DNA of 64,000 bases, taken from positions 1,081,566-1,145,565 of the forward strand of contig BCKZ01000004.1 of NCBI GenBank assembly GCA_001600815.1, given 5' to 3'. Below are positions 19,680-58,506 of the stretch, one piece after another. Under the pieces are notes generated by a model. It was given only the letters and a program-made list of their open reading frames with translations, ran no database searches and was not told the DNA's origin. The DNA comes from Alloascoidea hylecoeti (taxonomy: Eukaryota). The translations under genes and the position numbers were made by a program. Each line of letters starts with the position of its first letter. Position 1 is the stretch's first letter.

Positions 19680-20642
19680 CTACTTCCAGGACCCGATGAA
19701 ATAATGCTTCACGTACGCCATTTTATCTTTTATCCCCTTGGACCCCATATGGTGGACTCCCGGGCTGAAACTCGTTATTGGCAGTACCATAACGTCCCCA
19801 AGTACCCGTGGTGTGGTTAAGTTGCTGAGGTCCCTGGTGACGGCAGTGGCATTCTGGCTGGAAGAGCCCAGAGAGCCCAAGATAACGTCTGTCCATATCC
19901 CAGGCCCTGTCCATTCCAAAACGTCTTTACTGTTGTATTCCCGTCCCCCGTCTAACAGAGTGCTTTCAACGATTCTGGCGATGATTTCCCGGAGCAAAGG
20001 ATGTCCTGGCTTGGCTTGGAAAGTCCATTGGCAGAACTGTATTCTCCGAGCAAACCAGTCGTTCCAGTCCTCCCTATTGGCGTCTGCTTCAATTCCAATG
20101 GCCAGCCCGATTCCATGTGCATGTGTATTATCGTGGACCGTGGATGCCCAACTGTCGATTGGCTTCAGTGGAGCAGTGTCGATATCCGTATAAACCCCAC
20201 CTTTTGCAAATGTGATCAAATATCGAAAGAAATCAGCTTTTAGAATAGGACTAGGTAATAGTTTATAAGCATCAGTAACTTCGTGAATATCTTTATAAAT
20301 TATATTTACGAAATCCATGGCTTTATTATCATCCAATAAATAATGTACATAATCATTATTTTTATTTGTCCATTTTTGTTCCCATTTTCTAAACCTTTTT
20401 GGAAATTTAGATGATGAGAGATCAACTTTCCACGTTTGCCATATTATTTTTGGAAATTTTAAAGAGTTATCATATTTAAATTGTGATGATAATTTTTCAC
20501 GAATATCGATCGTATAATTATCTTGCTGGGTATATTTATAATTAATTATTGTATTGTTTCGAACAAAAGATCCCAATTGCAACAATAAAACTAAGCCAAG
20601 CAAAAGATAAAATGATCTAAACCGGAGAGAAAATCGGCTCAT
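19680..20642 (-). CDS. Och1/Hoc1-family alpha-1,6-mannosyltransferase (GT32), paralog A
   Basis: N-terminal signal anchor; PKIIWQTWK, LKADFFRYL, GGVYTDIDT (DxD), ARRIQFCQWT, WTGPGIWTD and LPITSFSPG. Confidence 0.92.
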   Translation of the reverse strand: MSRFSLRFRSFYLLLGLVLLLQLGSFVRNNTIINYKYTQQDNYTIDIREKLSSQFKYDNSLKFPKIIWQTWKVDLSSSKFPKRFRKWEQKWTNKNNDYVHYLLDDNKAMDFVNIIYKDIHEVTDAYKLLPSPILKADFFRYLITFAKGGVYTDIDTAPLKPIDSWASTVHDNTHAHGIGLAIGIEADANREDWNDWFARRIQFCQWTFQAKPGHPLLREIIARIVESTLLDGGREYNSKDVLEWTGPGIWTDVILGSLGSSSQNATAVTRDLSNLTTPRVLGDVMVLPITSFSPGVHHMGSKGIKDKMAYVKHYFIGSWK

Positions 20643-36419: not shown

Positions 36420-39400
36420 CAATGATTTTTGACGCTTGTGATGGGGTTTTGATAAAAAAAAAAGGGTGGAAAAAGTTCTGAAGAAGATGATCTGGAAAAT
36501 GGCTACTGGACCATTGCCCAGTTATATAATAGATTAAATATTGGAACATAACTGATTCTGATGAAATGCTCCAATTCTGCCGTATCAGGAAGTATCAATC
36601 TTCAATTGCATGCACCTGTGCATCTGCATATAATACCTTGTACATATGTGTATGTGCGTCGCACTTACATTAAATGACCTGGGCCAATCTGAGTTTGACA
36701 TGTTGAGAGTGCATCTAAACCTCCGGATCCTATTATTGTCTTGTTTAGCTTGTTGCGGAGTCAATAATATCCATCGTTCACCGAAAGGATTAGTATTATT
36801 TACCATTGGTAACTAAGTTAAGGTCATATTATTAATCGATATTTTCAATTGAGTTGGAAATATAGAAATATAAACTCAATTCCCATGTTTCCACGGCCCA
36901 TCATATGCTCAACAGTCGTTATAGCCTTAAGACACCGCTTCGCTAAGGTTTGATTCCAGCTGTTGCAAAAAAAGGTGAAAGGAATAATAAATAAACAGAA
37001 ACGATCATTCTAATTGTTTTTTTCAATAATTATTTCAAAATATTTCAAACAAAGTCATACATATTATTAATTATTTACTAATTAACTACGTATACCAGAA
37101 GATCATATTTAAATTTATACGGTATTGTATCGATGAAAAACCTTTTTTTTTTTTAATTTCAAAGCTATGATTTATAAATTCCTTTCTTTTAATCATCAAA
37201 AGGAATTTTAACCAAGAATATTGAAAAAAAAAAATCAACAATCCTTTGTTGGTTTCTCTTCTTTTTTTTCTTACAATTAATATATCTCTTACAATTAATA
37301 TTTGATTTTTAACTAAATTAATTACAATTACAACTACAAATTACAAATTACAATCGTTTAGTTTGATATAATTTGATTTTGTCAAGATCTATTTTCTGAT
37401 AAGGTGAACAAACTTTATATTTCAGATTAATCTTTTAAATTTATTCAAAATTTATTCATTCCCTAGTTTTATCAATTACTAGCATCCAACTTCATAATCT
37501 ATTACATGGTCAGTGTTGTGACTCGTTAACATAGACAAAAATTAATGTAAATGCGTTATTAATTGAAATCGGAGATTCAAAAATACCTTTCATAAAATTC
37601 ATGATGATTTTAATTGATTTGCTGTGGTTTTTGGAAATTTTCAATCACAAAGTAAATTTATCCTAGAGTATACTGTAGGCCGAACAATATATTATATATA
37701 TATAATAAAATCATTTATCCTACTCTTAATTTTGTAAATATACCTTTATATATCTAATAATATATCATCGATCAAGATATATACATAAATTAATTTTAAC
37801 CCTGTTTAGAAAAGAAATTAACAAGTGAAAATAAAAAGAAGCCATGCTTTGAAACTTTAATCTGAGAATTAATATTCTATTTGTATTATATTTCAGCTGT
37901 TAGTATGACCAATGTTTTGTAACTGAAAGTGCAAACGGAATGACGTTACTGGTTGCATATAACCAGAAAATTGATATAAGATTGAAGTCCTGTTATCAAT
38001 TGAAAAACATTAAATTAAAATTATGTATAAATATTTTTTCAGTTAAAAAGCTAAGGGTTTAAAAATAAAAAGATTAAATTATATAGCATTAACAATGCAA
38101 CAAGGGATAAGAAAAATATGTTCCTGCACTCTACATATATTTTCCAGGAAATTAGTATCGTTTTCAGTGTTTTACTTTTATATCACAAAGATTTGAGAAG
38201 TACTGAAGTAAGATTATTTCAAGATCTATGTGATGATATAGTTAGATTCAATTAAAAGCAAAGAAGACAGAAGGACTAATAAGTTATCCATAAAAACAGG
38301 CCCATCAAGGAAAGGGAAAACGGGTTGAAAAAAAACGAGGTGAGTGCTTAATTCCACGAATATCTACGGATTCCACTAACTTTCTAGCAGTTTCTACAAA
38401 CTTTACGAGACGTGTTAGACCTTTTAAAGTAGCAAGGAGTCCGTGATGTCTCTAACTTGGTTAAACCAAATCTCGCGTTAGTTTCCAAATAGTACAATCA
38501 TCAAGCTGGTTTTCAATCGTTTTTTTAAAAAATCCCCGAGAACGGAGCAGTATATAGGGCTCTTGTCAAACATTTTACTATGTGGGTCATAGACTGATAC
38601 TAGTCTCATAGTAGTGAAGATTCTCAACTGTGTCTTTTATATATTTTCGGAAAGTACCTGAGTGACATGCATAATTGTGCATATATATCCCATACAATTA
38701 AGTTTATAAATAACCTATACTCATATAACTTCAAAGTTGAAGTAAAATATATGATTGCAAAATATCCTTACTTGTATGTTAAACTCACCATCTTAATTTT
38801 TAGACTTAGGGCTTATACTTAATTATGAGTAGAATAAGTCTATAAAATTACATAATATAACTCATATGGTAAATTGATAGCAAGGTTAAGATTTTTCAGC
38901 GTCATAATTGCAACTGGAGTTTCGAATTCATTTGGAATTGAAAGATCGTTATTACTATTACTCCAATTAACTGCTTAATTGGTGTGACGAACATGAATCT
39001 GTTCGAAAGATAAGAGTTTGAAACATATTAAGCCAAATATTTATATCTCATCTTAGAATTGTAATAAGAAGCACGATAACTCGAATAATGGTCTCAATTT
39101 TCGAAGGAATTAACTCACATCACTTACAGTTTCAATTAAAAAATTAAATAAATAGGTATATAATTATACTATTAATTATTGTTTTTTTATAATATAATAG
39201 CTATATGAATCCATGTATATAAGCATTAGTCTTAAAGTTTAAGGGGATAATTATAATCAGAGACCTAACCATATAAACCTCGTATTCCAAAAGTTAGTGA
39301 GAAAAAAAAAATGCTCACATTGAACAACCTAGTTTCGTATTAAATCAACTATATAATTATCTATTTTGAACTTGTAAAGATCAGGGTCGTCAAAATTAGC

Positions 39401-42400
39401 GACACCTCTCCCGTTCTGTATTCCGTAGTGTGCCCAACCTCACCGTTAAGAATAATTCAACGGCTAAGAAAAGGAAATGGGTATAAGCATAGTGCCTCGT
39501 ATGCATTTTTATGCACCAACCACCATCAACCTATACATATTCGTATATTTGTTTATCACGTGATATTGGAAATCCGTTTGTGTGGGAAGATAATGAGTGC
39601 GGCACAGTAAATAATATTAATACTATCATTTTAATTGGACTTTAATTATATAAATTCGTTTGAGAAACCCCTTCATTTGGTCATCTAACATACAAATTGA
39701 ACTTGTTATGCATGCTGGACATATTTTTGGGTATATCTTGGAGCGCATAATTAATTGAAATAAAATAGATGATACCATTATTTCGACCAGCCTTTGCTCA
39801 CTATCAGTCAGTTGAGAAAACTTAAAATTCTTTATATGAATTATTTAATACAGTATATGTTGTGGTAATTGGGGTGAATATATTGTTATGCAGGTGGATA
39901 TAATGGTGTAGCGAGACCAATTAAGCAACTGTAGATGTAGGGTGGCTGGATAATGTTGGTTAAAATTTCATAGGATATTAAGGGATTTGAACATGTTGAG
40001 TGATTCTACTCTACTCTTATATTTAATATTAAAATTAACTATAGTTAATAGTCAACTATTAGTCATATGAATATTTTCGAAAGAGTATGAAAATATATTT
40101 GGAGGGTTGAAAATTACAATAAATCATGCAGCAAATTGTTAAATAATTATATAGTTAATACCGCCAATTTATTATACCCAATTATTATATGACATGTTAT
40201 CATAATTATAGTTAATAACCGATAGTAGTACCACAGTTAATTACAGTAGTTATGCTAAATAAGCTTGAGTTCGAAGATCTATTAACAATATCTAGATCTT
40301 CTAGAAACGACAGTAACACTTAAAATTTAAAAACCTATAACTTTAAAATAATAAGTAGTATAGACCTAATCTACAAATAATATACCAAGCTTATACTAAT
40401 ACTATAGCGTTAAAACAATAGAATTGTAAAGTATAATAAAATGAAAAATGCAATTTAATTTAAAGAAGGTCATATATATGCATATGCATATGCGTTTATG
40501 CATATTGAAATATTTAAAATAGGAATAAGAGTAGATAACAATGCAAAAAAAAGAAGTACAATTAGCCCAACAAATTCAAAGCTCTTAAAATTAATTATGT
40601 ATGATCAAAATTAATCAATCAATCCTAATCAAGTACAGGATCGTAATTTTTTCAGTATGAAACAAAACTAATTTGGATGGGTCAGACCTACTACCGGTCT
40701 TTTTGGAGGTGAAATATACTCTTGTGACTTTTTTGTTGCATGAAACATTTCCTAATTTGATCAGCTATTTTGAGTACTTTTCCTTGATTAATTTGAAATT
40801 ATAATTATCAGCAGAAGGAATAATAACTGCATTAATCATATTAGAACTGTCACCTGTGTGAGTATATATATGTATCTCTAATAGCAAAATTTTAAATGAG
40901 AAAAAGAATATTACAACTGTATTTCTGGAGCTGTAATGATTGAAAAATAAAATAATTAGGATTTTGATTCAAATATACCTCCACATGTATAGGGTAACTT
41001 ATTAGGGTTATAATTATATATACATGATTCCAATGATATAGCGCTTAGATACAATCTTCATCTATAATTTTTTTTGATCTTTATATTAAAATTAAAGATT
41101 GATCACCTTTAATTACAAATTTATTTCCCACTTTCCATTTGTTTGAGTTTTGTTTCCGTGCATGCAATCAATGAGTTATAGAGAACTAAATTATCCGTGG
41201 ATCCAATTGCCACATGATCATGAGCATAAACAAAAAGGGTGACTTTAGACCTAGGCCTAGGCCTACAAACCTGATATCAGCACGTGCACTATATTGATAT
41301 ATATAGGCCTATATTTGGGAGTTTGAGTAATGCACAAATCGAAAGTACATATATATTAATCCACACGTGATATAGTCTGGTTCCGTCATGGCCTTGTAAA
41401 TTCGAAAAGATCATCTAGTCGCTTTTATTACATTTCACATTATACAAATTATTACCATAAGGCCTTATATTTTATCTATAATAAATTACCCAGACATCAA
41501 GAACTATGTAGTGTAGATATCAATTATAGGCCTATACATATGTACGTATACAGAAAAGGTTAATTATGCTGTTCTACATTTTAAGAAGCTCATGTTATAA
41601 TTAAAAATCTTTTCGCTATAAATCTTGACCTAAATTTTAGGATATAATATGATTATTGATTTCAATAAAAATAATAGCAGCTCTAGGAATGAAGGATGTC
41701 GTTAAGAAGAATTCTGAGTTTTTAATTAAAGACATTACAATTCTACTGAGTACTAGTTGATGATGTATTAACTATAAAAAGAACAGTGAGGGTATATATC
41801 TATAGTATTCTATACACATGAGCTATTAATATTTTGTCCATTAACAATACTATAGCACTATGAATACGTTGAATAGGTACCGGTACCGAAGTTATCGTTT
41901 GGAAAGACTATGTAACGTGTACGAACAATGTACCGTATACGTACAGTATGTTAGATTTATAACTTATACATGTATTTTACTTTGGCTTGAACTTTTTTGA
42001 TCTATTTTTGGTTGTTATAAGCTTTTTTGAGATGATTTCTTTCAAATTAGTCTGATTGTTGCATCTCTAATAACTTTCAGCAAGGTAAGTTAGTATCATC
42101 ATATTAAATCTTATGCTTGGTCTCTTTTTCATATATAGCAATATTAGCTGTAGATGTTATAGCTCATCAAGCCAAGCGGGGTTATCAATAATCGCTAAAT
42201 GGATAGTTGTATACCGATATTAAAGTAGCGAAGTTAATTTATAGTGTGAAGGATAGAGTAAAGTTTTATCTCTCCGGATCCTGAATTTTTATTTTTGAAA
42301 AACTTTTAGTTGAGATTAATCACCATTATAAGGTCACGATAAAAAACAAAAATCTAAGAGATAATAATATTCCCTCACTTTCATAGATAACACGTGGGCT

Positions 42401-42894
42401 TGATATAAAAAGAAATATTTATAGAATTCAGTTACAGTATTTACGTACAAAACTACTACAAGTAAATATGCATAGTCCATATATCTCAGGCTAAATATTT
42501 ATAGGGGCTAACCGGACTTCCGAACTACAAAAGATAATTATTTAAGATTTATTTATCGGTGAATTATCATGATCATATAATTTAGTAAATATCATTAGGG
42601 ATTATGCCTTTAAGGTAGATTATCTTTTATATATTTAAAATAGTAAAAATGTTGCATCTTTTTACATCATGTTGCAGCACACATGGTTACAGTAAGATTA
42701 GCAAATTTCCAAATATAAGTATATTTGATATTTATAATAAAAGTAGTGCAATAGTTCCTGGTCTATTGACGTGTCTTCTCAGCTTTAAAAGATATTAACA
42801 CCAGGCAAATAATGTTATGAATTTTGTATTGTTGTCTATAGACGTGAGTTGCATAATATTAAAGTGTAAAACTGCTGTAGTTATTACAAACTTA

Positions 42895-43096
42895 CAATCG
42901 TTTCACTTAAATTTCAATCATCCTGCTACTAATTATCAGCCATCCCATAACTAATTTTCGACCACACTATTACTCGTATGGCCCGTTATTATACAGGGAT
43001 ATGGTACATCTTAGGGTGTCATACCCAGCCAAAAAATAATTAGGTGGGTGGCTGATAATTAGTAGCCAGGATGACCGAAATCAAGTGAAATGACTA
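42895..43096. mobile_element. MITE, copy 2
   Basis: TA|CAATCGTTTCACTTAAATTTCAATCATCCTGCTACTAATTATCAGCCATCC ... GGTGGCTGATAATTAGTAGCCAGGATGACCGAAATCAAGTGAAATGACTA|TA. TIRs are at least 50 bp, and the interior aligns with copy 1 (TCCCATAACTA, TTAT[A/G]CAGGG.TATGGT.CA, ACCC.GCC.AAA). Confidence 0.82.
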
Positions 43097-44137
43097 TAAA
43101 TTTTAACCATCCCACACCTTGCATAAATGTAAGTTATCGGGTAACTTCCATTTAGTCTAGACAAAGATGAGTGTTTGGACACTATCTGCATTCAACTAAA
43201 ATTTTCACCACTTTCACCGATTTTTTTTTTTAATTATTTTTTTAAATATATAACTTATATATTCTAATTAACACCATATTTCCTATTTAGCACGCTCAAT
43301 ATGTCTTGGAGTTTTTTTCTCTCGGTTGAGCTTATTTTTTTGAGAGGTCTTCTTTTGGAGGGTGTTTGCCTAACAATCCCCCAACATTTTTCTGCTAAGT
43401 AGTTCAGTTTCGAGAGATGTCTCGTGAAGATATTTAGATCAACTCGCTCTGCCCTTCTACAACTAATGCTCTTCATAGGAAAACGGATTATATACTTCTA
43501 GCCTCCGTACGGTTCTCTTCATTACAACTTCCGCGGCTCGTGCACAGCACATAATTTCAAACAGGAAATCAGGATTGTTGAGGATCTCCCACATCACACT
43601 AATGACTTTTTCCATATGCAAATCCATTCTGTCATTGGGCTTGAGGGCTATACTATTTATAATGATATGTATTGACTTTGTTTAGAAATGGTCGAGGTTG
43701 TAGCTAACTACAGGTATAAGCTATAAGACCTTATATGTTTCATCTACATCTTACCATTGATTGTATAACAATATTCACATGCATATATATCTTTTATGGT
43801 CAATGTGTAGTTATGAGAATACTTAATTACGATAATATATACAGAATATTAATTATAACTTATTAATAAACAACACCATCATTGTATGGATATATTTAAC
43901 GATTTATATCAGGTCTGGAACTTCTAGCTGAACCTCTACGTATGTAGCTGGGTGTAATCTAAAGTTGCGTTTTTTTTGGACACTCTCGAAAACTGATTCT
44001 AATTCGATAAAAATATTTAAATCTGTAATTGAAACTGCAAAAGGCAAACTTATAATATGCGTGTATCCTTTCTTTAGGGGCGTAATATCCAAATCATACA
44101 GACTAGACTCTGTAATTAACTATGGTGCGGGACGCTT

Positions 44138-44243
44138 AAAATGAAGAACTTTTTTCTTGCTCGAGATCTCCAGAAAATATGTATGCAACTGTACAGATTA
44201 CGCCATGCGGAAATTTAACAGCATACATACGCATGCACTCATC
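44138..44243 (+). repeat. Dispersed repeat family B, copy 2
   Basis: AACTTTTTTCTT..TCTCCAGAAAATATGTATGCAACT..GGAAATTTAACAGCATACATACGCATGCACTCA, shared with copies 1 and 3. Confidence 0.7.
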
Positions 44244-46840
44244 AAGATAAAGTAGGTTTAATGATGCACGTTATTGTATGCCGCGAAATCTGGAGGCCCA
44301 TAGTGAAGAAATACGAAAGATGAGAAGTGCAAAAATAAATTGTAAACGACAAGATTTAGATTTGATATCTATCTGCCTTCTGTTATCTTTAATATAAAAG
44401 TGATTTTGGTGTGGTAACATTTTTTGCGAAGGAATTTTTTTGATTCTCCTAATTATAAAAGGTTTTCATTTTAGGTGATGCCTACCATATGATTATGAGT
44501 ATAGAATGAATATGGTATGAAAATAGTATGAATATAATGTAGAATTTGTAGATGTGTACATATAGTGATAGAAGATCAATATTATTTTAAAACTTTAACT
44601 TTTACCCCGGAAAAAATAATTCAACTCCGATACGTTATAAAGTTAATTGTTAATACCTTGAAAATTTTGTAAGGAAACATGTCTTAACTTACCCTATATA
44701 TATAATTTATGGCCATCAACACAACTCAGGAAGGAGTAAAAGCATCAGGTAATCAAGGTAGTTATAAAAAACTTTATATTTAAAATTTTAAATGAAATTC
44801 TATCCAGAATCTGGAGATTTACGTTTACGGATATTACAAAATATGATAAAGTCTCAATGTTATTGGCCAAACATTTAGTGAGAAAATTTTTAAAGATTAA
44901 ATTATTTATAAAATTTGGGCAGCAACTGATTCCCAGTGCTCTTCTACCATAAATATGCATAATTGTGAAAGCATCTATGATTATCTTGATAAATTAAAAA
45001 GAAATTTAAGGAATTAATATTTTAGAAGATGAGAAATGAGTATGATAAATGTATTCTGCACCCTAATTGATTACATCGTTACCTGCGTAAGTAAAGCTTG
45101 TAAAGTTGTAATATATGTGCTATGAGAGTGTGGCCTGCGAACACTATGTTAACTATATGGATCAATATTTTCACATGGAAAAGTTTCGCCAAGGGATTAT
45201 ATAGATATTTCCGGCCAGAGGTTTTTGGTTATAATCATAAATCTCTTGTATTATTTTGTTAAACAACCACCAGGGGTATCAATTCAAAATGAGATAATTA
45301 TTTATAATAATCTTGAGAAGCCATGGATTTGAAAGTTGTGCATCGCTAAATGACTTTAACTATGAATCATTTATGATATAGATGTTAAAGTTACTATTCC
45401 TATTACTTATTTGAGGAATCTGTTGGAATATTTTTGAGGGATTCAGCAAATATTGCTACATCGTGTGCTCATCCAATTGCAAGTTTTAGGAGAATACAGT
45501 TCAATAATTTTTTATAAACTCCATCTTCCTATTTATTTTACCGATTCGATAATTTGTCTCTATGCTAACGAAAGATGATACATATACATACTGCAAAGTC
45601 AATCAGAAACATTGAATCTATAGGTTATTTGCTTGAAGACTATGAATCAGTATATTAATTTATAAGTAACAATTTCCAATTGATCAGTTAGATCCTCTAG
45701 ATACTCTTTTTTTTTATCTGTCCCTGCATATCTTATTATATTTCTTAATTTTAATACATTTTCTATAAACTAGCCATTCTGTAAGGTTATAAAGAATATT
45801 ACCTGACACCTTCATTTTTATCTTTTTTTCATTGATATTTACTATGGAATATCAGTGTTTGGACTCCTACTCTGTCGGATTCTAGCATCTTTCTTTTTAG
45901 TATTTTTATGGTCGAAGATTCTTCAAACATACATGTCGTTGTATATCAGCCTTTATTTTTGTTGTTGGGATAAACTACATATATCTGATTTGTACTTATT
46001 GGGTTGAATCATATAGGGGTTTAAACATTATATGTCTGTAGGATTTTAACAGACGAAGTTTCAGTATATTTAATAATGCTGAAAGTTCTCAATACTTATC
46101 TCAACAAATAACACAATATAGACCATATATTTAGATAGCTATGCTAGGTTATGATACTAGATTGCTATACCAGACTGATCCATTAATCAGGTTAAGGATT
46201 AGACTATATAAAGATTAGATATTCCCAATAAAGCTTATCGACTATCAGCTAATAGCTGGTCAACTACAAATATGGTGGTGTTAAAGCATAAGATATATCG
46301 ATTATCATTTTGGAGATTGAAGTGAAAGTTTTCATTACTAAAGTTTTCTAGTTATCATAAATGTTTAAATAGAAAAAGTATACATGTATAACACAAGTAG
46401 AATCCTATAATATAGCTATCGAATTGATACAGGAATTAACAAGAAAATTTAATAAAGATTATTATATAGAGGGATTATGAGTGATTGTTGGATCTATAGA
46501 ATTCGACAGGTGATCTATATCGAACTCTTATTATAATTATTTTATATTATTTGTATCTTATTATTATTTTGCCATCGGTAACATTAATGACAACATATCT
46601 AAGCTAAAAAACATTAATATGAAGATTATAAGGAATAAACATATGTAATAGTAAGAGTTATTCACCAAAAAGGCCTCTATATCAACTTGAGTATGTATTT
46701 TTCTATCAAAACATATTTAAAAAAACACAATTATTGTTCTTGAAACAGGCAAAATGCTTTTTCAATGGATAGTGCAGTTAAACATTATGGCAACAAATAT
46801 AGAAAAAAGAAAAAAAAAATCAACTGAAAAAACTATTGAT

Positions 46841-47216
46841 AAAAATTAACAAAAGTTCTTGAAAAAGCAGAAAAATGTATGTCAAACAACCCAAAACTAA
46901 GCCTTATCATTTTGCCGTTACCTCCAAGTATATGTGATGACACAGTTGTTAAAACTCTATTAATTGCTCCGTCCGTAAACGAGGTTCACAGTGTTCACAC
47001 AATACCCAGACATGCCGAAGAAGCGGCGAAGAACCCTGAACTTCTTCACCGCTTAGTTATCTACTTCGGCATGTCGACCTTGTTTACGACCAGAGCAAAT
47101 AATGGAGGTTTAACAACTATGCCAATGCTTGGAGGCCTATTTTAAAATGATAGGGCTTAGTTTTGGGTTGTTTGACATACATTTTTCTGCTTTTTCAAGA
47201 ACTTTTGTTAATTTTT
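46841..47216. repeat. Long nested inverted repeat (foldback / rod-like hairpin)
   Basis: Outer arms 46841-46913 and 47144-47216 (73 bp, one mismatch), plus five nested inner stems closing an 8-nt loop at 47034-47041. Confidence 0.95.
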
Positions 47217-47251
47217 CATCGATAAAAGTTTTTATTTTATATTAGGTAGAC

Positions 47252-47338
47252 AACTTTTTTCTTAGTCTCTAGAAAATATGCATGCAACTATATACTATTT
47301 TATAAGGAAATATATCAGCATACAGATGCATACACCCA
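47252..47338 (+). repeat. Dispersed repeat family B, copy 3
   Basis: AACTTTTTTTCTT..TCTCTAGAAAATATGCATGCAACT..TATAAGGAAATATATCAGCATACAGATGCATACACCCA aligns with copies 1 and 2. Confidence 0.7.
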
Positions 47339-48326
47339 CCTAGATATAGATTTTATTGTTAGTATATGTGAAACACGTGATTATATGCAAATGTAACTAC
47401 CACATAGTTTAGAACTGGGGTAAAATAATGGAGGGAAATCACTCATAGAAAGGAAAACCTCTACTTTTTCTTATTTAGATCTCAAATTTTTCTATGCGCA
47501 GACCGAAGTTTTATCTTGCTATCTTTGAACTCAGGGTTGAGATTCTTCACAAAACAAACGAATTATGCCCAACATTTCTTTTTACTCAGACTAACACGCG
47601 ACTTTGTACAATTGCAATAATGAATAATTTCATTTTACAATTTTGCACCAGTCAATGACTTTATTGAAGTCTTAATTATAAGTTTGGTTTTCTGGTAATC
47701 ACAATTGAGTTGCGGCCGTATATCGTGTATAGAATATAGCTGAATAGATCTAGAAAGGTTTCATCCATTGTTTGAGAAAGATTAAATATGTAATTATTAT
47801 AATTGTTGTTTTCAACCATGTAGAGGAATGGTAGATAAAACAAGTTCTAAAATATTAATCTTAGGCCTTTGCATTTCAAAATAAATGGGACGGCTCAGAC
47901 CTTCTAAAGTCAAAGCCGTAGAAGTAGAGACCGTAGACTATATGTAAATCTACAATTTCAACAACACTCTATATAGATTTTACCTATTTATTTATATTCC
48001 TTACCATATATACAATTGATTTTGTAGGTAACGTTTTTATTTGCATATTCGAGATTTCTTTGTTCTTTCCTTTCAATGTTAATATTGATGACCGGAATAA
48101 ATATCAGTTTAATTATGGCGGAGTGGGTCATGATATGCATATGCATGTGGTTGTACTTAGTACTGCCACTGTTTATTAGTCCCCGGCAATGTGATATTTA
48201 TGTATGACAATTGCCGATCCTTCCTTTACATACTTTTCATATAAAATCAACTGTTTTCCTTCTTCATTATTTCCCTCCATCAAATTTATCTTCACCAACC
48301 AACAATCATATTAATATATTTACACC

Positions 48327-48914
48327 ATGCGTTACTCTTCGATCCTTGTTATTTCCGCAGCAGCATTCACTTCCGTTCAAGCCGCTCCAATGCCTGATTT
48401 AGGTGATGATCTTGGTTCTGCCATCAGTAATGTTGTATCAGTAGCTACTGCTATTGCCAGTAGTGCTGAATCTGTTGGAACTAAAATTGCTTCCGGTGCA
48501 GTCTCAGAATTCACAAAAGTCACCTCAAAAGCTGTCAGCGCTGCCACAAATGTAGCCAGTAATGCTGAATCTGAAGCTTCAAAAGCAACTTCAAAAGCTG
48601 CCAGTGCTGCTACAAATATAGCTAGTAATGCTCAATCTGAAGCTTCAAAAGCAACTTCAAAAGCATCAAGTTTGATATCAGCTGGATCAAGTTTAAGATC
48701 AGCTGGATCAAGTTTAATATCAGCTGGATCAAGTTTAAAATCAGTTGGATCAAGTTTAAGATCAGCTGGATCAAGTTTAGGTTCTAGTTCTTCTACAGCT
48801 ACAGCAGGTAACAGCAGTTCCGGTGCTGATTCTATGTTTAGAAAAGAAGGTAATTCTATTATATATGCACCTGCTTTGGCTATTGTTGCAGGAGCTATTC
48901 TCTTTGGGATGTAA
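48327..48914 (+). CDS. Small Ser/Ala-rich secreted, probably GPI-anchored cell-surface protein with tandem repeats
   Basis: Signal peptide MRYSSILVISAAAFTSVQA; 22-aa and 7-aa repeats; C-terminal SSSGA omega-like site followed by a hydrophobic tail (ALAIVAGAILFGM). Confidence 0.85.
   Translation: MRYSSILVISAAAFTSVQAAPMPDLGDDLGSAISNVVSVATAIASSAESVGTKIASGAVSEFTKVTSKAVSAATNVASNAESEASKATSKAASAATNIASNAQSEASKATSKASSLISAGSSLRSAGSSLISAGSSLKSVGSSLRSAGSSLGSSSSTATAGNSSSGADSMFRKEGNSIIYAPALAIVAGAILFGM
48531..48779 (+). repeat. Coding minisatellites: 2 x 66 bp and 5.5 x 21 bp
   Basis: 66-bp units at 48531-48596 and 48597-48662; 21-bp units ATCAAGTTT[A/G]ANATCAG[C/T]TGG from 48665. Confidence 0.92.
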
Positions 48915-49248: not shown

Positions 49249-50179
49249 TTAAACAATTTGAAGAGGATCTTTATCACTTTGTGATAAAACAACAATATCT
49301 GAATCATCCAAAACTTCTTTTAATTGTTTTTGTAATATTTTTAAAAATCCACGTTCTGTATTTGAATGACCACAAATAATTGCACTTTGACCACCCTCAA
49401 CCATTGATAATGCTTCATGATGACCAATTTCTCCGGTGAAAAATAAATCCGCTTTGACTCCTCTAAATAACGAACCTCCTGATCCTGCACATATTGCTAT
49501 TGTTGAAATTGGTGTTCCGGTTGAGTGTTTTTTGGAGATGGCTGCCTGGACTATAAATTAAAAGAAAATAATTAGTTATGATTATAGGTAAACAACAAAG
49601 GGAGTAGGGGAAAAAACACGTACTATTTTTCATGCCTAAAAGAGTTTTAACTCTATTTAACAAGACATCAAAATCAACAGGTTCTTTTAAATTAATAATA
49701 CGACCCATTCCACCATTTTCATGACCTTTAATATTTTCAATTCCAGGAACAGATTCAAGAATATTTCTTGATGATTCAAATTTTAAACCACCTGAAATTC
49801 CGTCAGCTAACCAATCATTTACACCACCGATTGCGGCATCGATTGCAGTATGGGGACAATAAACAGATATACCAGATTGTGTTAAACGAATTAAAGAATT
49901 TTGTTGAGAATTTGTTAATGAGATTGATTTTAAAGGTCTAAAAATAAATGGATGGTATGCTAAAATAAGTGATGCTTTTTGTTCAATTGCTTCATCTGCT
50001 ACTGAACTTGTTAAATCAATTGTTAATAGGATTTTAGTAGGTGATGATGAAGATGTTGATGAAGTTGGGAATGGACAGTCTAATAATAAACCAGTATTAT
50101 CCCAAGTTTTATCTGCTAAAGATGTAGGATATAACTTTTGAATGGCTGTTACGATTCTTTTCAAAGATGGAGTTGACAT
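49249..50179 (-). CDS. NIF3: NIF3/YbgI (GTP cyclohydrolase I type 2 family) protein, 2 exons
   Basis: Exons 50179-49624 and 49550-49249; intron GTACGT..AACTAAT..TAG. Motifs WDNTGLL, AYHPFIF and PHTAIDA; exon 2 supplies AICAGSGGS, TGEIGHHE and HSNTERGFL. Confidence 0.95.
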
Positions 50180-50686: not shown

Positions 50687-50869
50687 AATAAAATTTTAAA
50701 ACAAATAAATATATATATTAATGGATATTAATTATAATCATAGCTTTATAATTTATAAATGAAACAACTAATGAAAAATCAATCGATTAACCAGAAATAA
50801 ACTTGCAAAATCAAAACCTTTATTCCCATACATGCTTAAATAAATATGCAAACAAATTATACAGTATAA

Positions 50870-51484
50870 TCATCTTATTTCCATACTTTGATTCTAATAA
50901 GGCTAGTCATTGCAAGGAGTCATTGTTAAATTCCCCTTAACTGCATTACCATCGCTAAAAGGATCTCCCCCGTCATATTCAACCCTCTCGTAAGTGTTCG
51001 AAAGGATGATATACTTTAATTAAACCAAAATTATTAGGAATATAAAATTTGTACTTCCCCGATAAGTCTTATTTTTATCACTTATAAAATTTTATTTAAT
51101 ATATACAGTGGATTGATGCTATACCATCTGATCTTCTAATCGAAAGAAATTGATTGCCTTTTAATTTTAAAACGATTTAATAATTCTTTTAATTAGCTTG
51201 TCTCTTCAGAACTTCATTTTATTAACCAATATTTCTTGACGTTGAGTCATTTGTAATGGATCTTAGATAAATTGTTTCATAATTGACTATGCATATCAGA
51301 ACCCAGCTTGAATCACTAACTTCACTGCTACTCTTATCATTTAAACCAGCCATTAAATGAAGAAACAGTATGAGTATCACGTTCACGTTCCTAACTTCGC
51401 CTCTCTGTGCGTCTTCGGCTTGACACTTTTCTGTTCCCGAAGAACGCTGGTGGCCCGAATCCGCAGCTCTTCCTCGGCATGCAT
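50870..51484 (-). pseudogene. Deleted and frameshifted third copy of the Gid4/Gid10-like paralogs
   Basis: Fragments in paralog order on the minus strand: MHAEEELRIRATSVLREQK (from 51484), MAGLNDKSSSEVSD..ETIYLRSITNDSTSRN (51353-51225), SIRRSDG (~51142-51122), and the C-terminal codons plus stop (50870-50950). About 615 bp against 1.7-2.1 kb, with stops. Confidence 0.85.
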
Positions 51485-51911
51485 TTTGCTTTGCAGTAAA
51501 TAAGGGAGGTGTAGATTTATAACGTACTCTTCAATAATAGTAAATATTAGTAATCTATCAATATGTCATCTTCCTGGGAAACCAAAAGTTTTTGTTTTGT
51601 TTAATTAAATTCTCCAATTGTAGGAATTTTATTTGGCCCATTCCTTATGGAAGGAAGGTCTGGGAACGACGGAATCTTAGTATGGGATATTTCAGTTGGG
51701 CTTCAAAAGTGGGGATATCTAATCTCAAAAGCTGATAATCATTTACCGCTTTGAATTTAGGCCAAGGAAAACTATACTCAAGGAACTATTATTATAGCTT
51801 ATACAATTGTAATGATATCGATAGTTTTGTAGTTTACATGAACAGTAGAAACTAGGCACTGAAAAATCAAAACGCTTAAATAAATAATTTTATAGAAAAA
51901 AATATATATAT

Positions 51912-53096
51912 TCATCTCATTTCTATACTTTGATTATAATAAGGCATACCATTACAAGGAATCATTGTTAAACTTCCCTTAAATGCATTATCATCTTTAC
52001 CATCATCTTTATCGATATCATCACCATCATCATCATCATCATTATCATCACCATCACCATCATCATCATTATCATCATCATTATCATCATCATCATCATC
52101 ATCACCACCATGAAGTCGTTCTGCTATTCTAGCAGTCATTGCAGCAGATACATAACGAGCAGCATAATGCCTATTAGCATAAGTTGTACTTAGAGATGTA
52201 TTTCCATTTATTATATAAATTGATGCATTACCATCTGATCTTCTAATTGAAAAAAATAAAACTGATCTTCCTAAATCGGTTACATCTTTATTAATCATTT
52301 GATTATAAATAGGAGAAGTTGTTTCAATTATTTCTTTAACATTTGAAAAAATAAATTTAATAAAAATATAATTTTTTAAAATTTCTTCAATTTTTGAAAG
52401 ATTTGTTAAATCATCAAGCATTGTTTTTGAATCTTTATATTTATTAAATGGTTCAATATTTTTCCATGCTTCAATTTGTGGAAATATTAAATCAGAACTT
52501 TCTGTACCTGATCTTCTTGATTGATAATTACTAACTATTGTTGTTGCTGGTCTCAATGCTGTTGGTGTTGTGGTTGGTGTTGCTGTTTCCGTTGATGTAG
52601 ATGAACTTGAATTTCCGCTCTGTTTAAACCACCTTAAGTCATTATTCATAAAATCAATAATTGAACCAGTTAAATCAAAAGTAACTTCATTTTCTTTTAA
52701 TGCTGATCTTTGATTTAAATGAATATTACGAAATAATTGATGGTTTGATTGGCCTGAACTAAGATAATATCTCATTAAAAATTGATTAGTTGTTTTTCCT
52801 GAACAATGAACTTGTCTTGTTTTATAATTAACTTGATTAATATTTATTTCAAAAGAATTTGAATCTAATTTATTAGTAATATTCGTTGCTGACGATACAT
52901 TATAAGTTATACCAGGTGTTAAAAATGAACAAAAATCAACTGTATTTAAATTTAAATTTAAATTCTTTTCATAAATTGATTTTCTTTTAATTTTAAAATC
53001 ATTTAATAAATTTTCTAAATTTTTTCTTCTTCTTTTTCTTGAATTTATTTCTTTATCATCATCATTATTAATATTATTAGAAGTATTAATTTGTGA

Positions 53097-53135
<39 letters not shown>

Positions 53136-54029
53136 ATTTTCATGTGAGTTTCTTCTTTCTTGTTCAATAGTCCTTCTCCCTTCCTCAAGACTCCTATCAT
53201 GTTCAATTCTTGAACTAATATTTCTTGTTAAATTATTTACACTAGCATTAATTGAATTTAAATTGAAAATTATTCCTTCTTCTTCAAGACGTCTTCTTTC
53301 TTGCTCAAGATATATTGTAGCGGAACTAGTATTTCTTGAAGTTAAATCATTTATACTGTTGTTATTAATTGATCTTAAATGAAAACCTCTTCTTTCTTGA
53401 TCAAGATTTCTTGAACCCGAACCAGCATTTCTTGAAGTTGAATCATTTGTAGTATTATTATTGATTGATCTTAATTGAAGACTTCTTCTTTCTTCTTCAA
53501 AACGTCTTGTTTCTTGTTCAATAATTCTTCTTCCTTGCTCAAGACTCCTTCTTTCTTGTTCAATTCTTGAAGTTAAATCATTTGTATTAATTGGTCTTAA
53601 AAGAATTGTTTGATTAGTGGCTGTATCATAACCTGGGCTTGAAGAATCACTGATTTCACTACCACCATCCTCATTTACACCAGGAAATATATTGGTATTA
53701 CTGGCAATATTATTCATATCAGCAACAATAACTTCGAATTGACCTTCGATATTTCTTAATAAATTATTAAAAGAAGATAAACTTTGTCTTCGTCTTTCAT
53801 AAGTTTCTGATTCAGTTGGATTTCCTGAACCATTAGTTGATGGTAATCTTCTAGAATTTGATAAATCCCAAAAAATAGGTGCTGTATTAATATTATTAGT
53901 ATTTGAGGGTTGATAATTAGGCAATCCTGGTTCCATTTGTCTCCGGTAACGTTCCATCATTTGTCTCCGATTCTCTCGGACACGTCTGAATGATTGGTCT
54001 TGTTCTTGATTTGCGCGGTTTTGGTCCAT
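51912..54029 (-). CDS. Divergent Gid4/Gid10 (Vid24, Vac_ImportDeg)-like protein, paralog 1
   Basis: Disordered N-terminal half, then CSFLTPG, FEININQVNY, LTGSIIDF, WKNIEPF, YIFIKF, FSIRRSDG and terminal QSIEMR in the order of Gid4-family motifs. The ORF is secure; the family call is by motif recall. Confidence 0.65.
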
Positions 54030-55770
54030 TTTTTTGTTTTATTTTTTCCAAAGAAACTAAATATGAAATTTGGAAATGGAATAAAAGATCGGGAGTGTGG
54101 ATGTCAAGCGAACATTACCTAATTCTTATCTGATAACAATAACCTTTTTTCGAAAATTCATACAAACGCTTTTCTCTCTACTTTCAACTTCAAATTTTTT
54201 ATAATTTTTATATCCACAATCTTCGCATCTCAATATTTCCTATTTCCAATTTTAAGAAAAAGTTATACAATGGCTATAAAAATATCCGTCTTTTTACATT
54301 TGTATTGTTACCCGGATTATATATATATAGTTTATTAGTTTAAGATGGAAAGAACGTTTAGTGAGATTTGTAGGTGTATTTCGCCATATTGGAAACTCTA
54401 AATTAGGTGTTTGGAAGATTATTAGTTCGCCGTAAAGTTTTAGTTCATGTCGCTGCAGAATTGATTTACAGTTTGTCCCCATATTCAACGCATGTATAAA
54501 TGTTCTTTCGCCACACATGAAGTAAATAGTTAGTTTCTTGGGTGAAATAGGGTTCGTGATGTTTTTTATTCTATTTCATCATCAAGTCTCATTTTTCTAC
54601 CAGTGCCCGAGGATCCCTTTGAAACTATAAGTGGAATTCTAAGAAGCGAAGGGAATTAATTATACACAATTATACGGAGATCAAAAAGAGAGAGATGTAT
54701 GTCGGAAGCTTGGAGCTAGTGAGCTCAATACTCCAAGATTTAAAAGACAAAATTTCGAACATGTATTGTCATAATTATGAGATTTTAATTAACTATATTT
54801 TAGCAATACCATTTTTAATAGTTTATATTCATTGCTGTTTTTACAATTTGTGGTTGAAGTGTAATAATTTTTGGCGGACCACTTCGGACTTTTTCCCTTT
54901 AATGATGCTATACCTATCTTAGACTGTTCACAGGGACAAACTAAGCTTAAGCTCAGGTGAAATCTTACAAACCTTTCGTAAAATATAATTCAGAAGCTAA
55001 AAATATAGAAATCAACTAAAATAATTACTAGGAAAAAAATTACTTGGAAAAGAAGTTAATTATAATCGTAGGATTATGTTTAAATAAAGATGTTTTGTCA
55101 GAGTTGGAGTTTAAAACGATGTGCACTTAATATTCTCGAAATAGAGAAGACCATAGTCAGGTATTGCAATGCTCCAAAAAGTTATTTGAAAAACTAAGCG
55201 CCGAATAAATAATAAAAATTTATCAATTCCATTAGAAGATGAAAAACAATATATCTTAAAGATTTGTGATCCATATTGTGCTTCACTGGGCCAGAGGTCT
55301 AACTCAAATGCCTATAAAGTGTGTTCCAAATTTAATCTGTTTTGGATTTATCAAATTCATATCTGACTCTGCTACTGAAGTGAGAATGGAATGTTGATGA
55401 CTTCTTATAATCATATCTACGTCTTATTCAACACAATCCGCCTAAAGTTACCCTCACATTTATTCAAAACAACCCCAATTCATATTTCATATGCCTCATC
55501 TCACTTTATATCTTTACTATCATCATTTAACAGAGAACTATATGCTCTAGAATCCTCGAGATCTATTATACCTTATGCCACCTACGTTGTTACACCTTAT
55601 ATATTAATCGATATTAATTGTAATGATAGTATATATAATTTACATGAACAATTAATAAAACTAGAAAAATCAAAATCAAAATCGGAACCAAAACCAAAAC
55701 CAAAACCATTATCCATATACGTAACTTAAATAAACAATTAAATAAATAAATATGCCAAAAAATTATATAA

Positions 55771-57474
55771 TCATCTCATTTCTATACTTTGATTATAATA
55801 AGGGGTACCATTACAAGGAATCATTGTTAAATTTCCCTTAATTCCATTATCATCCATATCTATATCATCATCCATACCACGAGTCTCTTCATAAAGTCTT
55901 CTTATAGCAGATCTAGATGTATAACGGCCAGTTACTTGATTTAAAGAATAATTATGACGATCTTTAGTTAAACCAATATTTTCATTTAATAAATAACTTG
56001 ATGAGTTACCATCTGATCTTCTAATTGAAAAAAATAAAATTGAATTTTTTAAATCATTTACATCTTTATTCACAATTTCATTATAAATATCATTTGAAGT
56101 TTCTTTTAATTCTTTAACATTTAAAAAATTAAATTTTATAAAAATATAATTTGATAAAATTTCTTTAATTTTTGATAAATTTGTTAAATCATTAATTAAT
56201 GATTTTAAATCTTTATATTTGTTAAAAGGTTCAATATTTTTCCAAATTTCAATTTGTTGGAATATTAAATCATATGTTTCAATATTAATATCTTTTCTTG
56301 TTCTTCTTGTATATGAATTACCTGTTATTGTCGATGTTCCTATTGATAATGATGATGATTCTGAATTTGAATTTTTTGATGAAGTAATCCATCTTAAATC
56401 ATCATTAACGAAATCAATAATTGTACCAGTTAAATCGAAAGTAACTTCACTTTTTTTAACCGCTGTTCTTGATCCTCTATCAAAATCAAAAGCATGAAAT
56501 AATTGATGACTTGATTGATCTGAACTAAGATAATATCTCATTAAAAATTGATTAGTTGTATTTCCTGAGCAATGAATTTTTCTTGTTTTATAATTAACTT
56601 GATTAAAAATAAATTTAAAAGAATTTGAATTTAAATTTGAATTAGTTGTTGTTGATAATAAATTATAAGTTATACCAGGAATTAAAAATGAACAAAAATC
56701 AATTGTATTATTTAAATTTAAATTTAAATTTTTATAATAAATTGATTGTCTTTTAGTTTTAAAATTATTTAATAAATTTTCTAAATTTTTTCTTTTTCTT
56801 TTTTTTGAATTTAATTCTTTATCATTATCATCATCAATATTATTATTATTATCATTATCATTATAATCAGGAACATTAAGATGTAAGTCACTATGTATAC
56901 GAAAGAAATCATTAAGTGAATTTGAAATTATTCTTTCTTCTTCGACATTTCTTGTAGCAACATTTCTTGAAGTTAAATCATCTGTACTATTATTATTGTT
57001 AATGGTTCTTAAATGAATTGTTTGATTAGTGACTGTATCAGAACTTGAGCTTGAAACATCACTAACCTCGCTACCACCATCTTCATTTACACCAGCTAAA
57101 GTTGTATCTCTGATATTATTAGCACTAGTTGGATTAGAATTATTATCCCTATTACGAATAATGTCAAATTGATCTTCCATATTTCTTAATAAATTATTAT
57201 AAGATGCTAAATTTAGTCGTTGTCTTTGATAAAGAGATTGTGAAGTCGTAGGTGTTCGTAAAGTATTAGTTGTCGGTAATCTAGCAGAGTTGGATATATT
57301 CCATAAACTGGGTAAAGTTTGAGGATTATTATTTGAGGGTTGAGAATTAATGTTAACTATAGATGTTCTTGGTTGTAATTGTCTCCTGCGACGTTCCACT
57401 ATATGTCTTCGCTGCTCTCGAAGAAGCCTGCTTGCTTCAAAGCGTTGTTCTTGAGTTGGCACGTTTGGTTCCAT
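55771..57474 (-). CDS. Divergent Gid4/Gid10 (Vid24)-like protein, paralog 2
   Basis: Clear paralog of 51912-54029 (CSFLIPG, LTGTIIDF, WKNIEPF, YIFIKF, FSIRRSDG, YYNQSIEMR). Confidence 0.65.
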   Translation of the reverse strand: MEPNVPTQEQRFEASRLLREQRRHIVERRRRQLQPRTSIVNINSQPSNNNPQTLPSLWNISNSARLPTTNTLRTPTTSQSLYQRQRLNLASYNNLLRNMEDQFDIIRNRDNNSNPTSANNIRDTTLAGVNEDGGSEVSDVSSSSSDTVTNQTIHLRTINNNNSTDDLTSRNVATRNVEEERIISNSLNDFFRIHSDLHLNVPDYNDNDNNNNIDDDNDKELNSKKRKRKNLENLLNNFKTKRQSIYYKNLNLNLNNTIDFCSFLIPGITYNLLSTTTNSNLNSNSFKFIFNQVNYKTRKIHCSGNTTNQFLMRYYLSSDQSSHQLFHAFDFDRGSRTAVKKSEVTFDLTGTIIDFVNDDLRWITSSKNSNSESSSLSIGTSTITGNSYTRRTRKDINIETYDLIFQQIEIWKNIEPFNKYKDLKSLINDLTNLSKIKEILSNYIFIKFNFLNVKELKETSNDIYNEIVNKDVNDLKNSILFFSIRRSDGNSSSYLLNENIGLTKDRHNYSLNQVTGRYTSRSAIRRLYEETRGMDDDIDMDDNGIKGNLTMIPCNGTPYYNQSIEMR

Positions 57475-57627
57475 TTTTTATGTTTTAGCAACTGAAAAAG
57501 AGGAAGTGAAAAGTGTGGAGAGCCGGTTGTCACACAAACAGCCGAACTTCTCAGCACGGACGGGGTAATTCTTATCCGATAAACAATATAAATAATCCTC
57601 CTGAAAATCATATTCCTCATTCAAAAA

Positions 57628-58506
57628 ATGTCTTTTTCTCTTTTGAAATCTCAATTGCAATGTTCTCATTCAATGTTGCGATTGGCTCGCCCAATTGGTA
57701 TCATTGGTGGTAGAATGCTATCTACTTTCTCGGAGCTTCAGTATCTCAAGGTATCGTCTCCGGCAAATGGGGTTTCTTTGATCGAGCTTAACAGACCAAA
57801 GGCATATAATGCTTTATGTACCCCTTTAATCAACGAACTCAATCAGGTTTTGGGAGTATTACGCACAGATAAAGATATAGGAGCTGTTGTTTTAACAGGT
57901 AGTGAAAAGGCATTTGCAGCGGGTGCAGATATTAAAGAAATGAAAGATTTCACTTTAGAAGAATGTATTGCTAATGATTTTATAAAGTCATGGAGTAACT
58001 TGAAAGAATTCCCAAAACCTTTAATTGCAGCAGTCAATGGATTTGCACTGGGAGGTGGTTGTGAATTAGCAATGAGTTGTGATATAATTTATGCGGGTGA
58101 AAATGCCAAATTTGGACAACCAGAAATAACAATTGGTGTTATTCCTGGTGCGGGAGGTACACAGAGATTAATTAGATCAATTGGGAAATCAAGAGCAATG
58201 GAATATATCTTATCGGGTAGACAATTTAATGCAAAACAAGCTGAAGATTGGGGTTTGGTTTCTAAAGTTTTTGCAACTGATAAGGTTGTTGATGAAGCTG
58301 TTCAATTAGCAAGTGAAATATCTAATTTTGGTGGGGCAAGTGTTAGAAAGGCAAAAGAAGCTATTAATTTGGCAAATGAAGTATCACTTTCTGCTGGGTT
58401 ACAACATGAAAGAAGTGTTTTCCATTCTTTATTTGCTACGAAAGATCAAAAGGAAGGAATGTCTGCGTTCGTTGAAAAGAGAAAGCCCAATTTTGAGAAG
58501 TTGTGA
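57628..58506 (+). CDS. Mitochondrial short-chain enoyl-CoA hydratase (ECHS1-like crotonase)
   Basis: LNRPKAYNAL, AFAAGADIKEM, GFALGGGCELAM (catalytic Glu) and FGQPEITIGVIPGAGGTQRL; presequence-like N-terminus. Confidence 0.95.
   Translation: MSFSLLKSQLQCSHSMLRLARPIGIIGGRMLSTFSELQYLKVSSPANGVSLIELNRPKAYNALCTPLINELNQVLGVLRTDKDIGAVVLTGSEKAFAAGADIKEMKDFTLEECIANDFIKSWSNLKEFPKPLIAAVNGFALGGGCELAMSCDIIYAGENAKFGQPEITIGVIPGAGGTQRLIRSIGKSRAMEYILSGRQFNAKQAEDWGLVSKVFATDKVVDEAVQLASEISNFGGASVRKAKEAINLANEVSLSAGLQHERSVFHSLFATKDQKEGMSAFVEKRKPNFEKL

Follow-up and report, generated by a model that had tools for sequence, protein, structure and literature searches.

Receptors of the Gid4/Gid10 family, which have a calycin-type beta-barrel, select substrates for the GID/CTLH ubiquitin ligase; they bind the armadillo domain at the C-terminus of Gid5/ARMC8, a contact that includes an aliphatic stripe on the barrel, and take up N-terminal degron peptides for GID-dependent ubiquitylation. 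In yeast, Gid10 (YGR066C) is a stress-induced alternative Pro/N-degron receptor, and Gid11 is encoded by YLR149C. Here we analyze a 64,000-nucleotide stretch of the yeast Alloascoidea hylecoeti (assembly GCA_001600815.1, contig BCKZ01000004.1, positions 1,081,566 to 1,145,565 of the forward strand; hereafter the window, to which all coordinates refer) that carries a tandem array of two intact genes, A and B, and the relic of a third copy, all on the minus strand. The products of A and B have a predicted Gid4-like barrel and end in a tail that fits the published Gid5 anchor of Gid4-type receptors. We consider it somewhat probable that the A/B family is a lineage-restricted, very divergent branch of the Gid4 family that docks on the GID ligase, and everything that goes past the fold and the tail motif we infer from these two lines of evidence.

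The described receptors provide the frame for this comparison. Passages of a 2025 review name only Gid4, Gid10, and Gid11 as yeast receptors and present receptors interchangeable at one GID site as a feature especially of yeast, with a single Gid4-like receptor known in higher eukaryotes (PMC12687426). Gid4 and Gid10 are anchored on Gid5 by a C-terminal hydrophobic-Glu-hydrophobic-X motif (Phi-E-Phi-X; PMC8189435), the last eight residues of Gid4 being held in a channel of the Gid5 C-terminal domain (10.1101/824060), and Gid11 ends in YDLC, its last 20 residues sufficing for recruitment to GID (PMC8189435; PMC9180843). The same Gid5 site can thus also take a receptor that is non-canonical, as Gid11 shows (PMC8189435). 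At the other end of the interaction, Glu237 and Tyr258 of human GID4, two conserved residues at the substrate tunnel's tip, hold the N-terminal amine of the substrate (10.1101/2021.09.03.458554). In the titles and abstract openings of the literature collection searched, we found no paper describing a divergent tandem Gid4-like family in yeast.

Gene A (55771..57474, minus strand) is an intact open reading frame (ORF) encoding 567 residues, with a public protein, P0001, about 99% identical to its product, and its assignment as a divergent Gid4-like protein comes from a predicted model and fold searches. Gene B (51912..54029, minus strand), identified by its ORF and by BLASTP and alignment to A, encodes an intact paralog of 705 residues. 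BLASTP aligns the two proteins with 253 identities over 500 residues (51%, E 5e-121) and adds a further N-terminal match of 89/184, in agreement with the initial annotation, which had described two intact minus-strand paralogs. The C-terminal domains are 64% identical, and the conserved nucleotide blocks 82-90% identical. Both proteins terminate in NQSIEMR, so the QSIEMR ending attributed to the two intact copies is indeed there, as are all the motifs listed for them (SFLxPG, VNY, G-x-IIDF, W...EPF, YIFIK, RRSDG, and IEMR). The unit common to the copies begins near the start codon and extends roughly 170 nt beyond the stop codon; repeat comparison found no shared sequence upstream of the genes. 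Neither A nor B contains a CTG codon (0 in each), and their translation is therefore independent of the yeast genetic code.

The structural argument begins with two AlphaFold2 models made without templates, one of residues 225-567 of A and one of the domain of P0002, a distant homolog from another yeast; the same four-sequence alignment was used for both, and the two models are therefore not independent. The A model has a mean predicted local distance difference test (pLDDT) score of 48.0 and a predicted template-modelling (pTM) score of 0.51, and the P0002 model is worse (37.7 and 0.39). The A model contains eight strands, at model residues 45-49, 61-70, 75-83, 119-128, 219-231, 254-261, 267-273, and 289-293, with three helices that separate strand 4 from strand 5, and its loops and tail are disordered. 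In protein coordinates, the predicted Gid4-like barrel domain of A spans aa ~258-526 (55897..56703, minus strand), within which aa ~362-399 form a Ser/Thr-rich loop and aa ~400-441 a helical insert, and alignment to A places the barrel of B at aa ~364-634 (52128..52940, minus strand).

When the A model was compared with 350,542 PDB chains in Foldseek, all 28 of the rows listed through rank 35 were human GID4, yeast Gid4, or Gid10, with E-values of 1.3e-4 to 7.5e-2, probabilities of 0.80-1.00, and template-modelling (TM) scores on the target of 0.42-0.62; the next match had a probability of 0.03, and unrelated proteins all stayed at or below 0.2. Realignment of the Foldseek candidates with VIA-align again put the Gid4 family in all of the top 28 places (Z 9.9-11.5, root-mean-square deviation (rmsd) 3.2-4.8 Å, 143-186 residues aligned), and the next entry, among avidins, nitrobindins, and other calycins, scored Z 7.0. 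One of these overlays matches model residues 34-302 to residues 117-294 of human GID4 (7q4y_B) and covers 171/174 residues at Z 11.5 and rmsd 4.2 Å. A VIA-align search of 48,161 chains that did not depend on Foldseek returned four chains at Z ≥ 8, every one of the Gid4 family (10.8, 10.5, 10.5, and 10.2), followed by a fifth at 7.5. The P0002 model behaved alike: the Foldseek listing through rank 36 gave 28 rows, each of them from the Gid4 family, and the same four chains stood at Z ≥ 8 in the 48,161-chain search (8.9-9.9), with the fifth at 7.9. Other calycins, that is, avidins, nitrobindins, and lipocalin-like barrels, reached at best Z 7.0-7.5 with the A model and 7.9 with the P0002 model over 101-129 aligned residues, below Gid4. 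It is because the match list is so specific that we take the structural evidence to argue for the Gid4 fold. The overlay on Gid4 and Gid10 barrels that the initial annotation had proposed is thus the sole strong structural match of both low-confidence models, accounting for 4/4 of the chains at Z ≥ 8 among the 48,161, and the barrel of the A/B family is modelled as antiparallel and calycin-type, with a peripheral helical insertion, and superposable on Gid4.

The C-terminal tail is a second line of evidence, independent of the models. In A, this conserved segment is KGNLTMIPCNGTPYYNQSIEMR (aa 546-567; 55774..55839, minus strand), a putative Gid5 anchor, identified from its identities to the other family tails and from the published motif, that ends in IEMR; in B it is KGSLTMIPCNGMPYYNQSIEMR (aa 684-705; 51915..51980, minus strand). 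The full-length proteins A, B, and P0002 share the ending SIEMR, and the relic has SMEIR. Over its 22 residues the tail is identical at 20 positions between A and B and at 12 between A and P0002, which puts it among the best-conserved segments of the proteins. The terminal IEMR fits the Phi-E-Phi-X anchor published for Gid5 (PMC8189435), as the initial annotation had recognized. Given the composition of the 18 long ORFs of the window, the chance of a Phi-E-Phi-X C-terminus is 0.6% per protein, and it was found in 2/18, namely, A and B. The tail motif therefore points, at the level of sequence, to the Gid4 family and to docking on Gid5.

Between A and P0002, the identities outside the tail concentrate on the predicted strands (15/21 in strand 4, 7/9 in strand 5, and 10/20 in strands 6-7) and are low in the loops (2/30, 5/32, 1/21, and 2/13). 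P0002 itself was found with HMMER, run exhaustively over 1.84 billion representative proteins with a profile of the two paralogs at E ≤ 0.001, a scan that returned four proteins, P0001 to P0004, whose clusters all lack a name. P0001 is the public copy of gene A and differs from it at three residues (99% identical). P0002, a protein of 536 aa found at E 1.9e-31, is 31% identical to A in the domain and ends in KSIEMR. P0003 is an annotated short protein of 79 aa that shares 49% identity with the barrel's DLRW...EPF part and is probably a fragment or a mis-called piece of a family member from a third yeast. P0004 was rejected as a relative, its match being poly-Asp noise. Word-indexed protein searches returned only the query's own cluster or P0002, and in metagenome contigs, searched with the family alignment, none of 474 pattern matches was confirmed; a degenerate DNA pattern for the tail gave no match there. 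As far as the collections searched show, the family is tiny and lineage-restricted, with two or three yeast species so far.

The remaining parts of the two proteins frame the barrel. From its N-terminus, A consists of a polar region, a basic cluster, the barrel domain, an acidic linker, and the conserved tail. The N-terminal region (aa 1-224; 56803..57474, minus strand) is low-complexity and 74% polar, with the 89/184 identities to the N-terminus of B noted above; the N-terminal parts of A (224 aa) and B (329 aa) together range from 74 to 76% polar residues, contain no Pfam domain, and are probably disordered, judging by their composition. It is followed in A by KKRKRK (aa 224-229; 56788..56805, minus strand), a cluster resembling a nuclear localization signal (NLS), with RKRRRK at the same place in B; such clusters may send the proteins to the nucleus. 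B is longer than A because its N-terminal region contains tandem repeats of 96 nt (32 aa), made of ERRxLxLRSINNNxxNDxTSRN units (53286..53477, minus strand; repeat families D10, D4, and D8) with further degenerate copies, and because its barrel is joined to its tail by an acidic poly-Asp/Asn/Gly linker (aa ~632-680; 51990..52136, minus strand) of more than 40 residues, where A has only ~11.

These appended parts bear on the reading that a Gid4-fold barrel has become uncoupled from GID and has been reused elsewhere, for example in the nucleus, with IEMR being coincidental or serving another partner. The long N-terminal region with its NLS-like cluster, the acidic linker, and pocket residues that are apparently not conserved (see below) would agree with such reuse, and functionally unrelated calycins share the fold at Z 5-7.5. 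Against it stand the strong conservation of the tail (20/22 and 12/22), with an exact Phi-E-Phi-X end of low chance expectation, and the distance of the Gid4 family, 2.7-3.5 Z units over every other calycin in the A model. We regard this reading as unlikely and favor a Gid4-family branch that retains its ligase.

A and B arose by a recent tandem duplication, and the third copy, the relic, is dead. The reading frames of A and B are clearly maintained, since both are open although none of 2000 simulated copies of A remained stop-free (mean 11.5 stops at 10% random substitution per site); the two genes differ at ~22-25% of sites, and all their indels are in-frame. The ratio of nonsynonymous to synonymous substitution rates (dN/dS) between A and B, by the Nei-Gojobori method, comes to 0.85 overall and to 0.63 and 0.67 in two conserved blocks (aa 252-360 and aa 395-500, respectively), at a dS of ~0.3, and these ratios may be inflated, as the AT bias of the genome may depress dS. 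A second strain, represented in a wood-decay metagenome (sequencing run X4), contains 0.93 of the sampled words of 50800-57700, with 12 listed differing sites, six of them inside the covered parts of A and B (four nonsynonymous and two synonymous). Contig joints that connect one paralog to the other (such as 52389 to 56612) were rejected as structural variants: their shorter side measures just 21-29 letters, and we read them as assembly-graph links through shared repeats. Uncovered bins in a further sequencing run, X1, were not counted as absence. Among the sequencing runs listed as containing this stretch, none was of RNA. Altogether, A and B are maintained genes, weakly or diversifyingly constrained, in a birth-and-death array.

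The relic (50873..51350, minus strand) lies directly downstream of B and consists of collinear fragments at 51350-51233 (aa ~116-159), 51255-51224, 51192-51144 (aa 231-247 of A), 51150-51090 (aa 480-499), and 50953-50715 (aa 541-567 and 3' flank), with nucleotide identities of 71-88%. These derive from the N-terminal region, from the basic/LENLL segment, from the RRSDG strand, and from the tail, and the relic has lost ~230 barrel codons (aa ~248-480) together with the first ~115 codons. Its tail reads GNLTMTPCND-stop-PY-stop-NQSMEIR-stop, with two in-frame stops. The initial annotation had called this copy a pseudogene; the copy is real, but it is a relic with heavy deletions, and that term understates its decay. 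A GC-rich patch of ~125 nt (51376-51500) interrupts the AT-rich spacer that separates the relic from gene B; it has no meaningful Rfam match, and its RNA fold (z -0.36) is no better than that of shuffled sequence.

Several observations weigh against descent from Gid4 and docking on its ligase. In hmmscan, neither A nor B matched the Gid4 family profile PF09783 (Vac_ImportDeg; gathering score 27 bits) at E ≤ 1, and P0002, P0003, and six sub-pieces of A and B did not match it at E ≤ 10, with the limit that HMMER filters lose most matches above E ~0.1. The profile comparison with Vac_ImportDeg that the initial annotation had suggested as a check thus fails at the HMMER level for whole proteins, sub-pieces, and distant homolog. 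Two family profiles and a 106-aa segment likewise returned no Gid4-family chain from 177,635 PDB sequences in HMMER at E ≤ 10; the PDB contains many Gid4 and Gid10 chains, as the Foldseek library shows. A protein-language-model search with P0002 led to Alpha_kinase fragments (score 0.90, 153 shared features). To these come the poor quality of both models, as low-confidence models can yield meaningless fold matches and best Z scores of 7-8 are common by chance, and the high dN/dS of A and B, in the conserved blocks as well as overall, and the differences of the second strain within them, which are compatible with weak constraint.

The candidates that these searches did return were rejected. Weak Pfam matches to CAMSAP_CC1, AvrPto, ABC_AB, and ARPP-1 (E 0.03-0.6) were taken as noise; the HMMER matches in the PDB (poly-Asp tails of E2 enzymes, TamA, a T-cell receptor, and a lectin repeat) were taken as compositional or due to chance; and an Alpha_kinase identity falls short, its 153 shared features lying below the 170 typical of true family matches and no kinase appearing in the fold searches. 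The ESM Atlas gave no usable match for A. PF09783 matched in none of 14 control genomes and not in the one bacterial genome.

From the same observations one could read A and B as an orphan, fast-evolving family of no Gid4 ancestry, the barrel being an AlphaFold artefact of a shallow alignment. The low pLDDT of both models, the lack of a detected sequence-level link to Gid4, the near-neutral dN/dS, and the scarcity of relatives (only four proteins at E ≤ 0.001 in 1.84 billion, one of them poly-Asp noise) would all fit such an origin. It is less easily reconciled with two family members that converge on one specific family among 48,161 chains, with a tail motif that agrees independently with the Gid4 family, and with conservation that coincides with the predicted strands, and we hold it to be distinctly unlikely. 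For the branch of the Gid4 family that we prefer, we infer homology with Gid4, docking on Gid5, and an altered ligand. Because the fold and the anchor are found, while Pfam and HMMER similarity is not, we call A and B Gid4-like and probably homologous rather than established members of PF09783.

The degron pocket may also set the family apart from the known receptors. The initial annotation had the WKE and GFYY segments replaced in these proteins, a putative change on which the order of the strands bears. We presume Glu237 and Tyr258 of human GID4 to correspond to strands 5 and 6, respectively, a placement that follows the human sequence and the motifs of the initial annotation. By strand order, strand 5 is YIFIKFNFLNVKE in A, YIFIKFIFSNVKE in B, and YILIKFEISDVG in P0002, and no column shared by the three contains a Glu. 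Strand 6 is SILFFSIR in A, SVLFFSIR in B, and SIILLSIR in P0002, all of them devoid of Tyr; in strand 7, A and B each have a Tyr, and P0002 lacks one. These sequences suggest that the amine-binding Glu/Tyr pair has been lost, and it is plausible that the pocket has been remodelled and made more hydrophobic. With no conserved Glu or Tyr on the strands expected to bear them, the barrel would bind a ligand other than a canonical Pro/N-degron, or nothing.

The pocket also bears on whether A and B could be the sole, fast-evolving GID4 orthologues of their lineage and work as ordinary Pro/N-degron receptors for gluconeogenic enzymes. Their fold and Phi-E-Phi-X tail are as in Gid4, and to this extent the proposal holds. 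Its weakness lies in the strands expected to carry Glu and Tyr, where no such residue is conserved, and in the rate of change: a dN/dS of 0.6-0.85 and an adjoining dead copy are unlike a conserved housekeeping receptor. Other proteins of the window match Pfam strongly, so the proteome overall is not hyper-divergent, and Gid4 is recognizable from yeast to human (PMC3797097), yet A and B miss PF09783. We therefore think it very unlikely that A and B are ordinary GID4 orthologues.

A bolder proposal, which we view as a rather doubtful possibility, is that A and B are lineage-specific, birth-and-death 'pseudo-receptors' derived from Gid4, in which the Gid5 anchor has been kept and the Glu/Tyr pair swapped for a hydrophobic pocket. 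Such proteins could bring new substrates to the ligase through internal or non-amine degrons, or they could occupy Gid5 as competitive inhibitors that switch GID off. The near-neutral dN/dS and the gene turnover would then reflect ongoing diversifying selection on binding targets. Were this so, A and B would be the first natural Gid4-type receptors with a changed recognition principle.

Set against the described receptors one by one, the divergent Gid4-family branch that we favor resembles Gid4/Vid24 and human GID4 in several respects. The predicted barrel of A, with its helical insert, covers nearly the whole human GID4 domain (171/174); the A model matches yeast Gid4 at Z 10.8 (7ns3_4) and 10.2 (6swy_4); and a long non-conserved N-terminal region precedes the barrel, with a Phi-E-Phi-X C-terminus at the other end, as in Gid4. 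Unlike Gid4, A and B show no similarity to the family that Pfam or HMMER can detect, their structure-based identity being 9-12%, and their domain is ~100 residues larger because of the Ser/Thr loop and the acidic linker. The strands after the helical insert have no conserved Glu or Tyr, the equivalence to E237/Y258 being presumed. The family further differs in its fast evolution and in its tandem arrangement next to a dead copy. Its conserved tail extends over ~22 residues, compared with the eight described for Gid4 (10.1101/824060).

The fold match to Gid10 is equally good (7qqy_A, Z 11.0; 7vgw, Z 10.5-10.7; both with the A model), and since the Z scores are tied, neither Gid4 nor Gid10 is demonstrably closer to A and B. 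In concept, too, Gid10 is comparable as a second interchangeable Gid4-type receptor that docks on Gid5, but it is highly similar in sequence to Gid4 (PMC12687426), whereas A and B share no similarity with Gid4 that our tools detect. Gid11 resembles A and B in its C-terminal anchor, in which an acidic residue between two hydrophobic ones reaches Gid5 (PMC8189435), and differs in that it is predicted to be a WD40 propeller (PMC12687426) and not a barrel; it is analogous to A and B in the anchor only.

The surroundings of the array are those of an ordinary budding-yeast locus. The window is AT-rich (GC content 0.21-0.35 in 2-kb windows) and encodes glycogen synthase, DOP1, BBP/SF1, Exo70, Och1-type glycosyltransferases, NIF3, enoyl-CoA hydratase, and CYK3, among which glycogen synthase (E = 0) and ECH_1 (1e-83) illustrate how strongly the neighbors score against Pfam. 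No GID subunit appears among the Pfam matches of the window proteins. Another gene-family expansion is a local trio of paralogs with Gly_transf_sug (PF04488, Och1/Hoc1-type mannosyltransferases) at 19680-20642 (minus strand), 23203-24366 (plus strand), and 25356-26498 (plus strand). Upstream of an HMG-box gene (34557-36419, minus strand), ~11.9 kb (36420-48326) contain no ATG-started ORF of at least 90 aa, the longest stop-to-stop frame being 100 aa, and no transfer RNA or Rfam match; this could be a very long regulatory intergenic or centromere-like region. It is followed by 48327-48914 (plus strand), which encodes a 195-aa Ser/Ala-rich repeat protein, hydrophobic at both termini and with no Pfam domain, that looks like a secreted or glycosylphosphatidylinositol (GPI)-anchored wall protein. 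The NIF3-like ORF at 49463-50179 (minus strand) covers positions 3-160 of the 256 of the Pfam model and then continues into odd hydrophobic sequence, likely from an unspliced intron or a frameshift. On the other side of gene A, the enoyl-CoA hydratase gene (57628-58506, plus strand) has its sole CTG codon at NGFA[L/S]GGGCELA; Leu at this site fits the crotonase consensus, an indication that CTG is decoded as Leu in this yeast, according to the standard code.

If A and B are a Gid4-family branch that docks on GID, their tail would insert into Gid5, at its concave C-terminal armadillo domain, in the manner of the Gid4, Gid10, and Gid11 anchors, and this docking would set the barrel opposite the RING module. 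A tail docked into Gid5 would in turn make A and B compete with Gid4 and the other receptors for the single receptor site, and a barrel with no amine clamp could recruit a different class of ligand, or none, in which case it would act as a decoy.

The practical side of such a family concerns targeted protein degradation, for which GID4 has been discussed as a handle (PMC9180843). The Foldseek matches of the A model include GID4 ligand and proteolysis-targeting chimera (PROTAC) complexes, and alternative pocket chemistries on the Gid4 scaffold could be of interest for this purpose. For the biology of the family, our reading, if true, would mean that other budding yeasts have evolved extra receptors on the Gid4 scaffold, too divergent for the family databases, in which the docking tail has been kept and the pocket apparently rebuilt. 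The array would then be a natural experiment on the evolution of degron specificity upon a fixed E3 platform, and possibly a source of a natural GID inhibitor.

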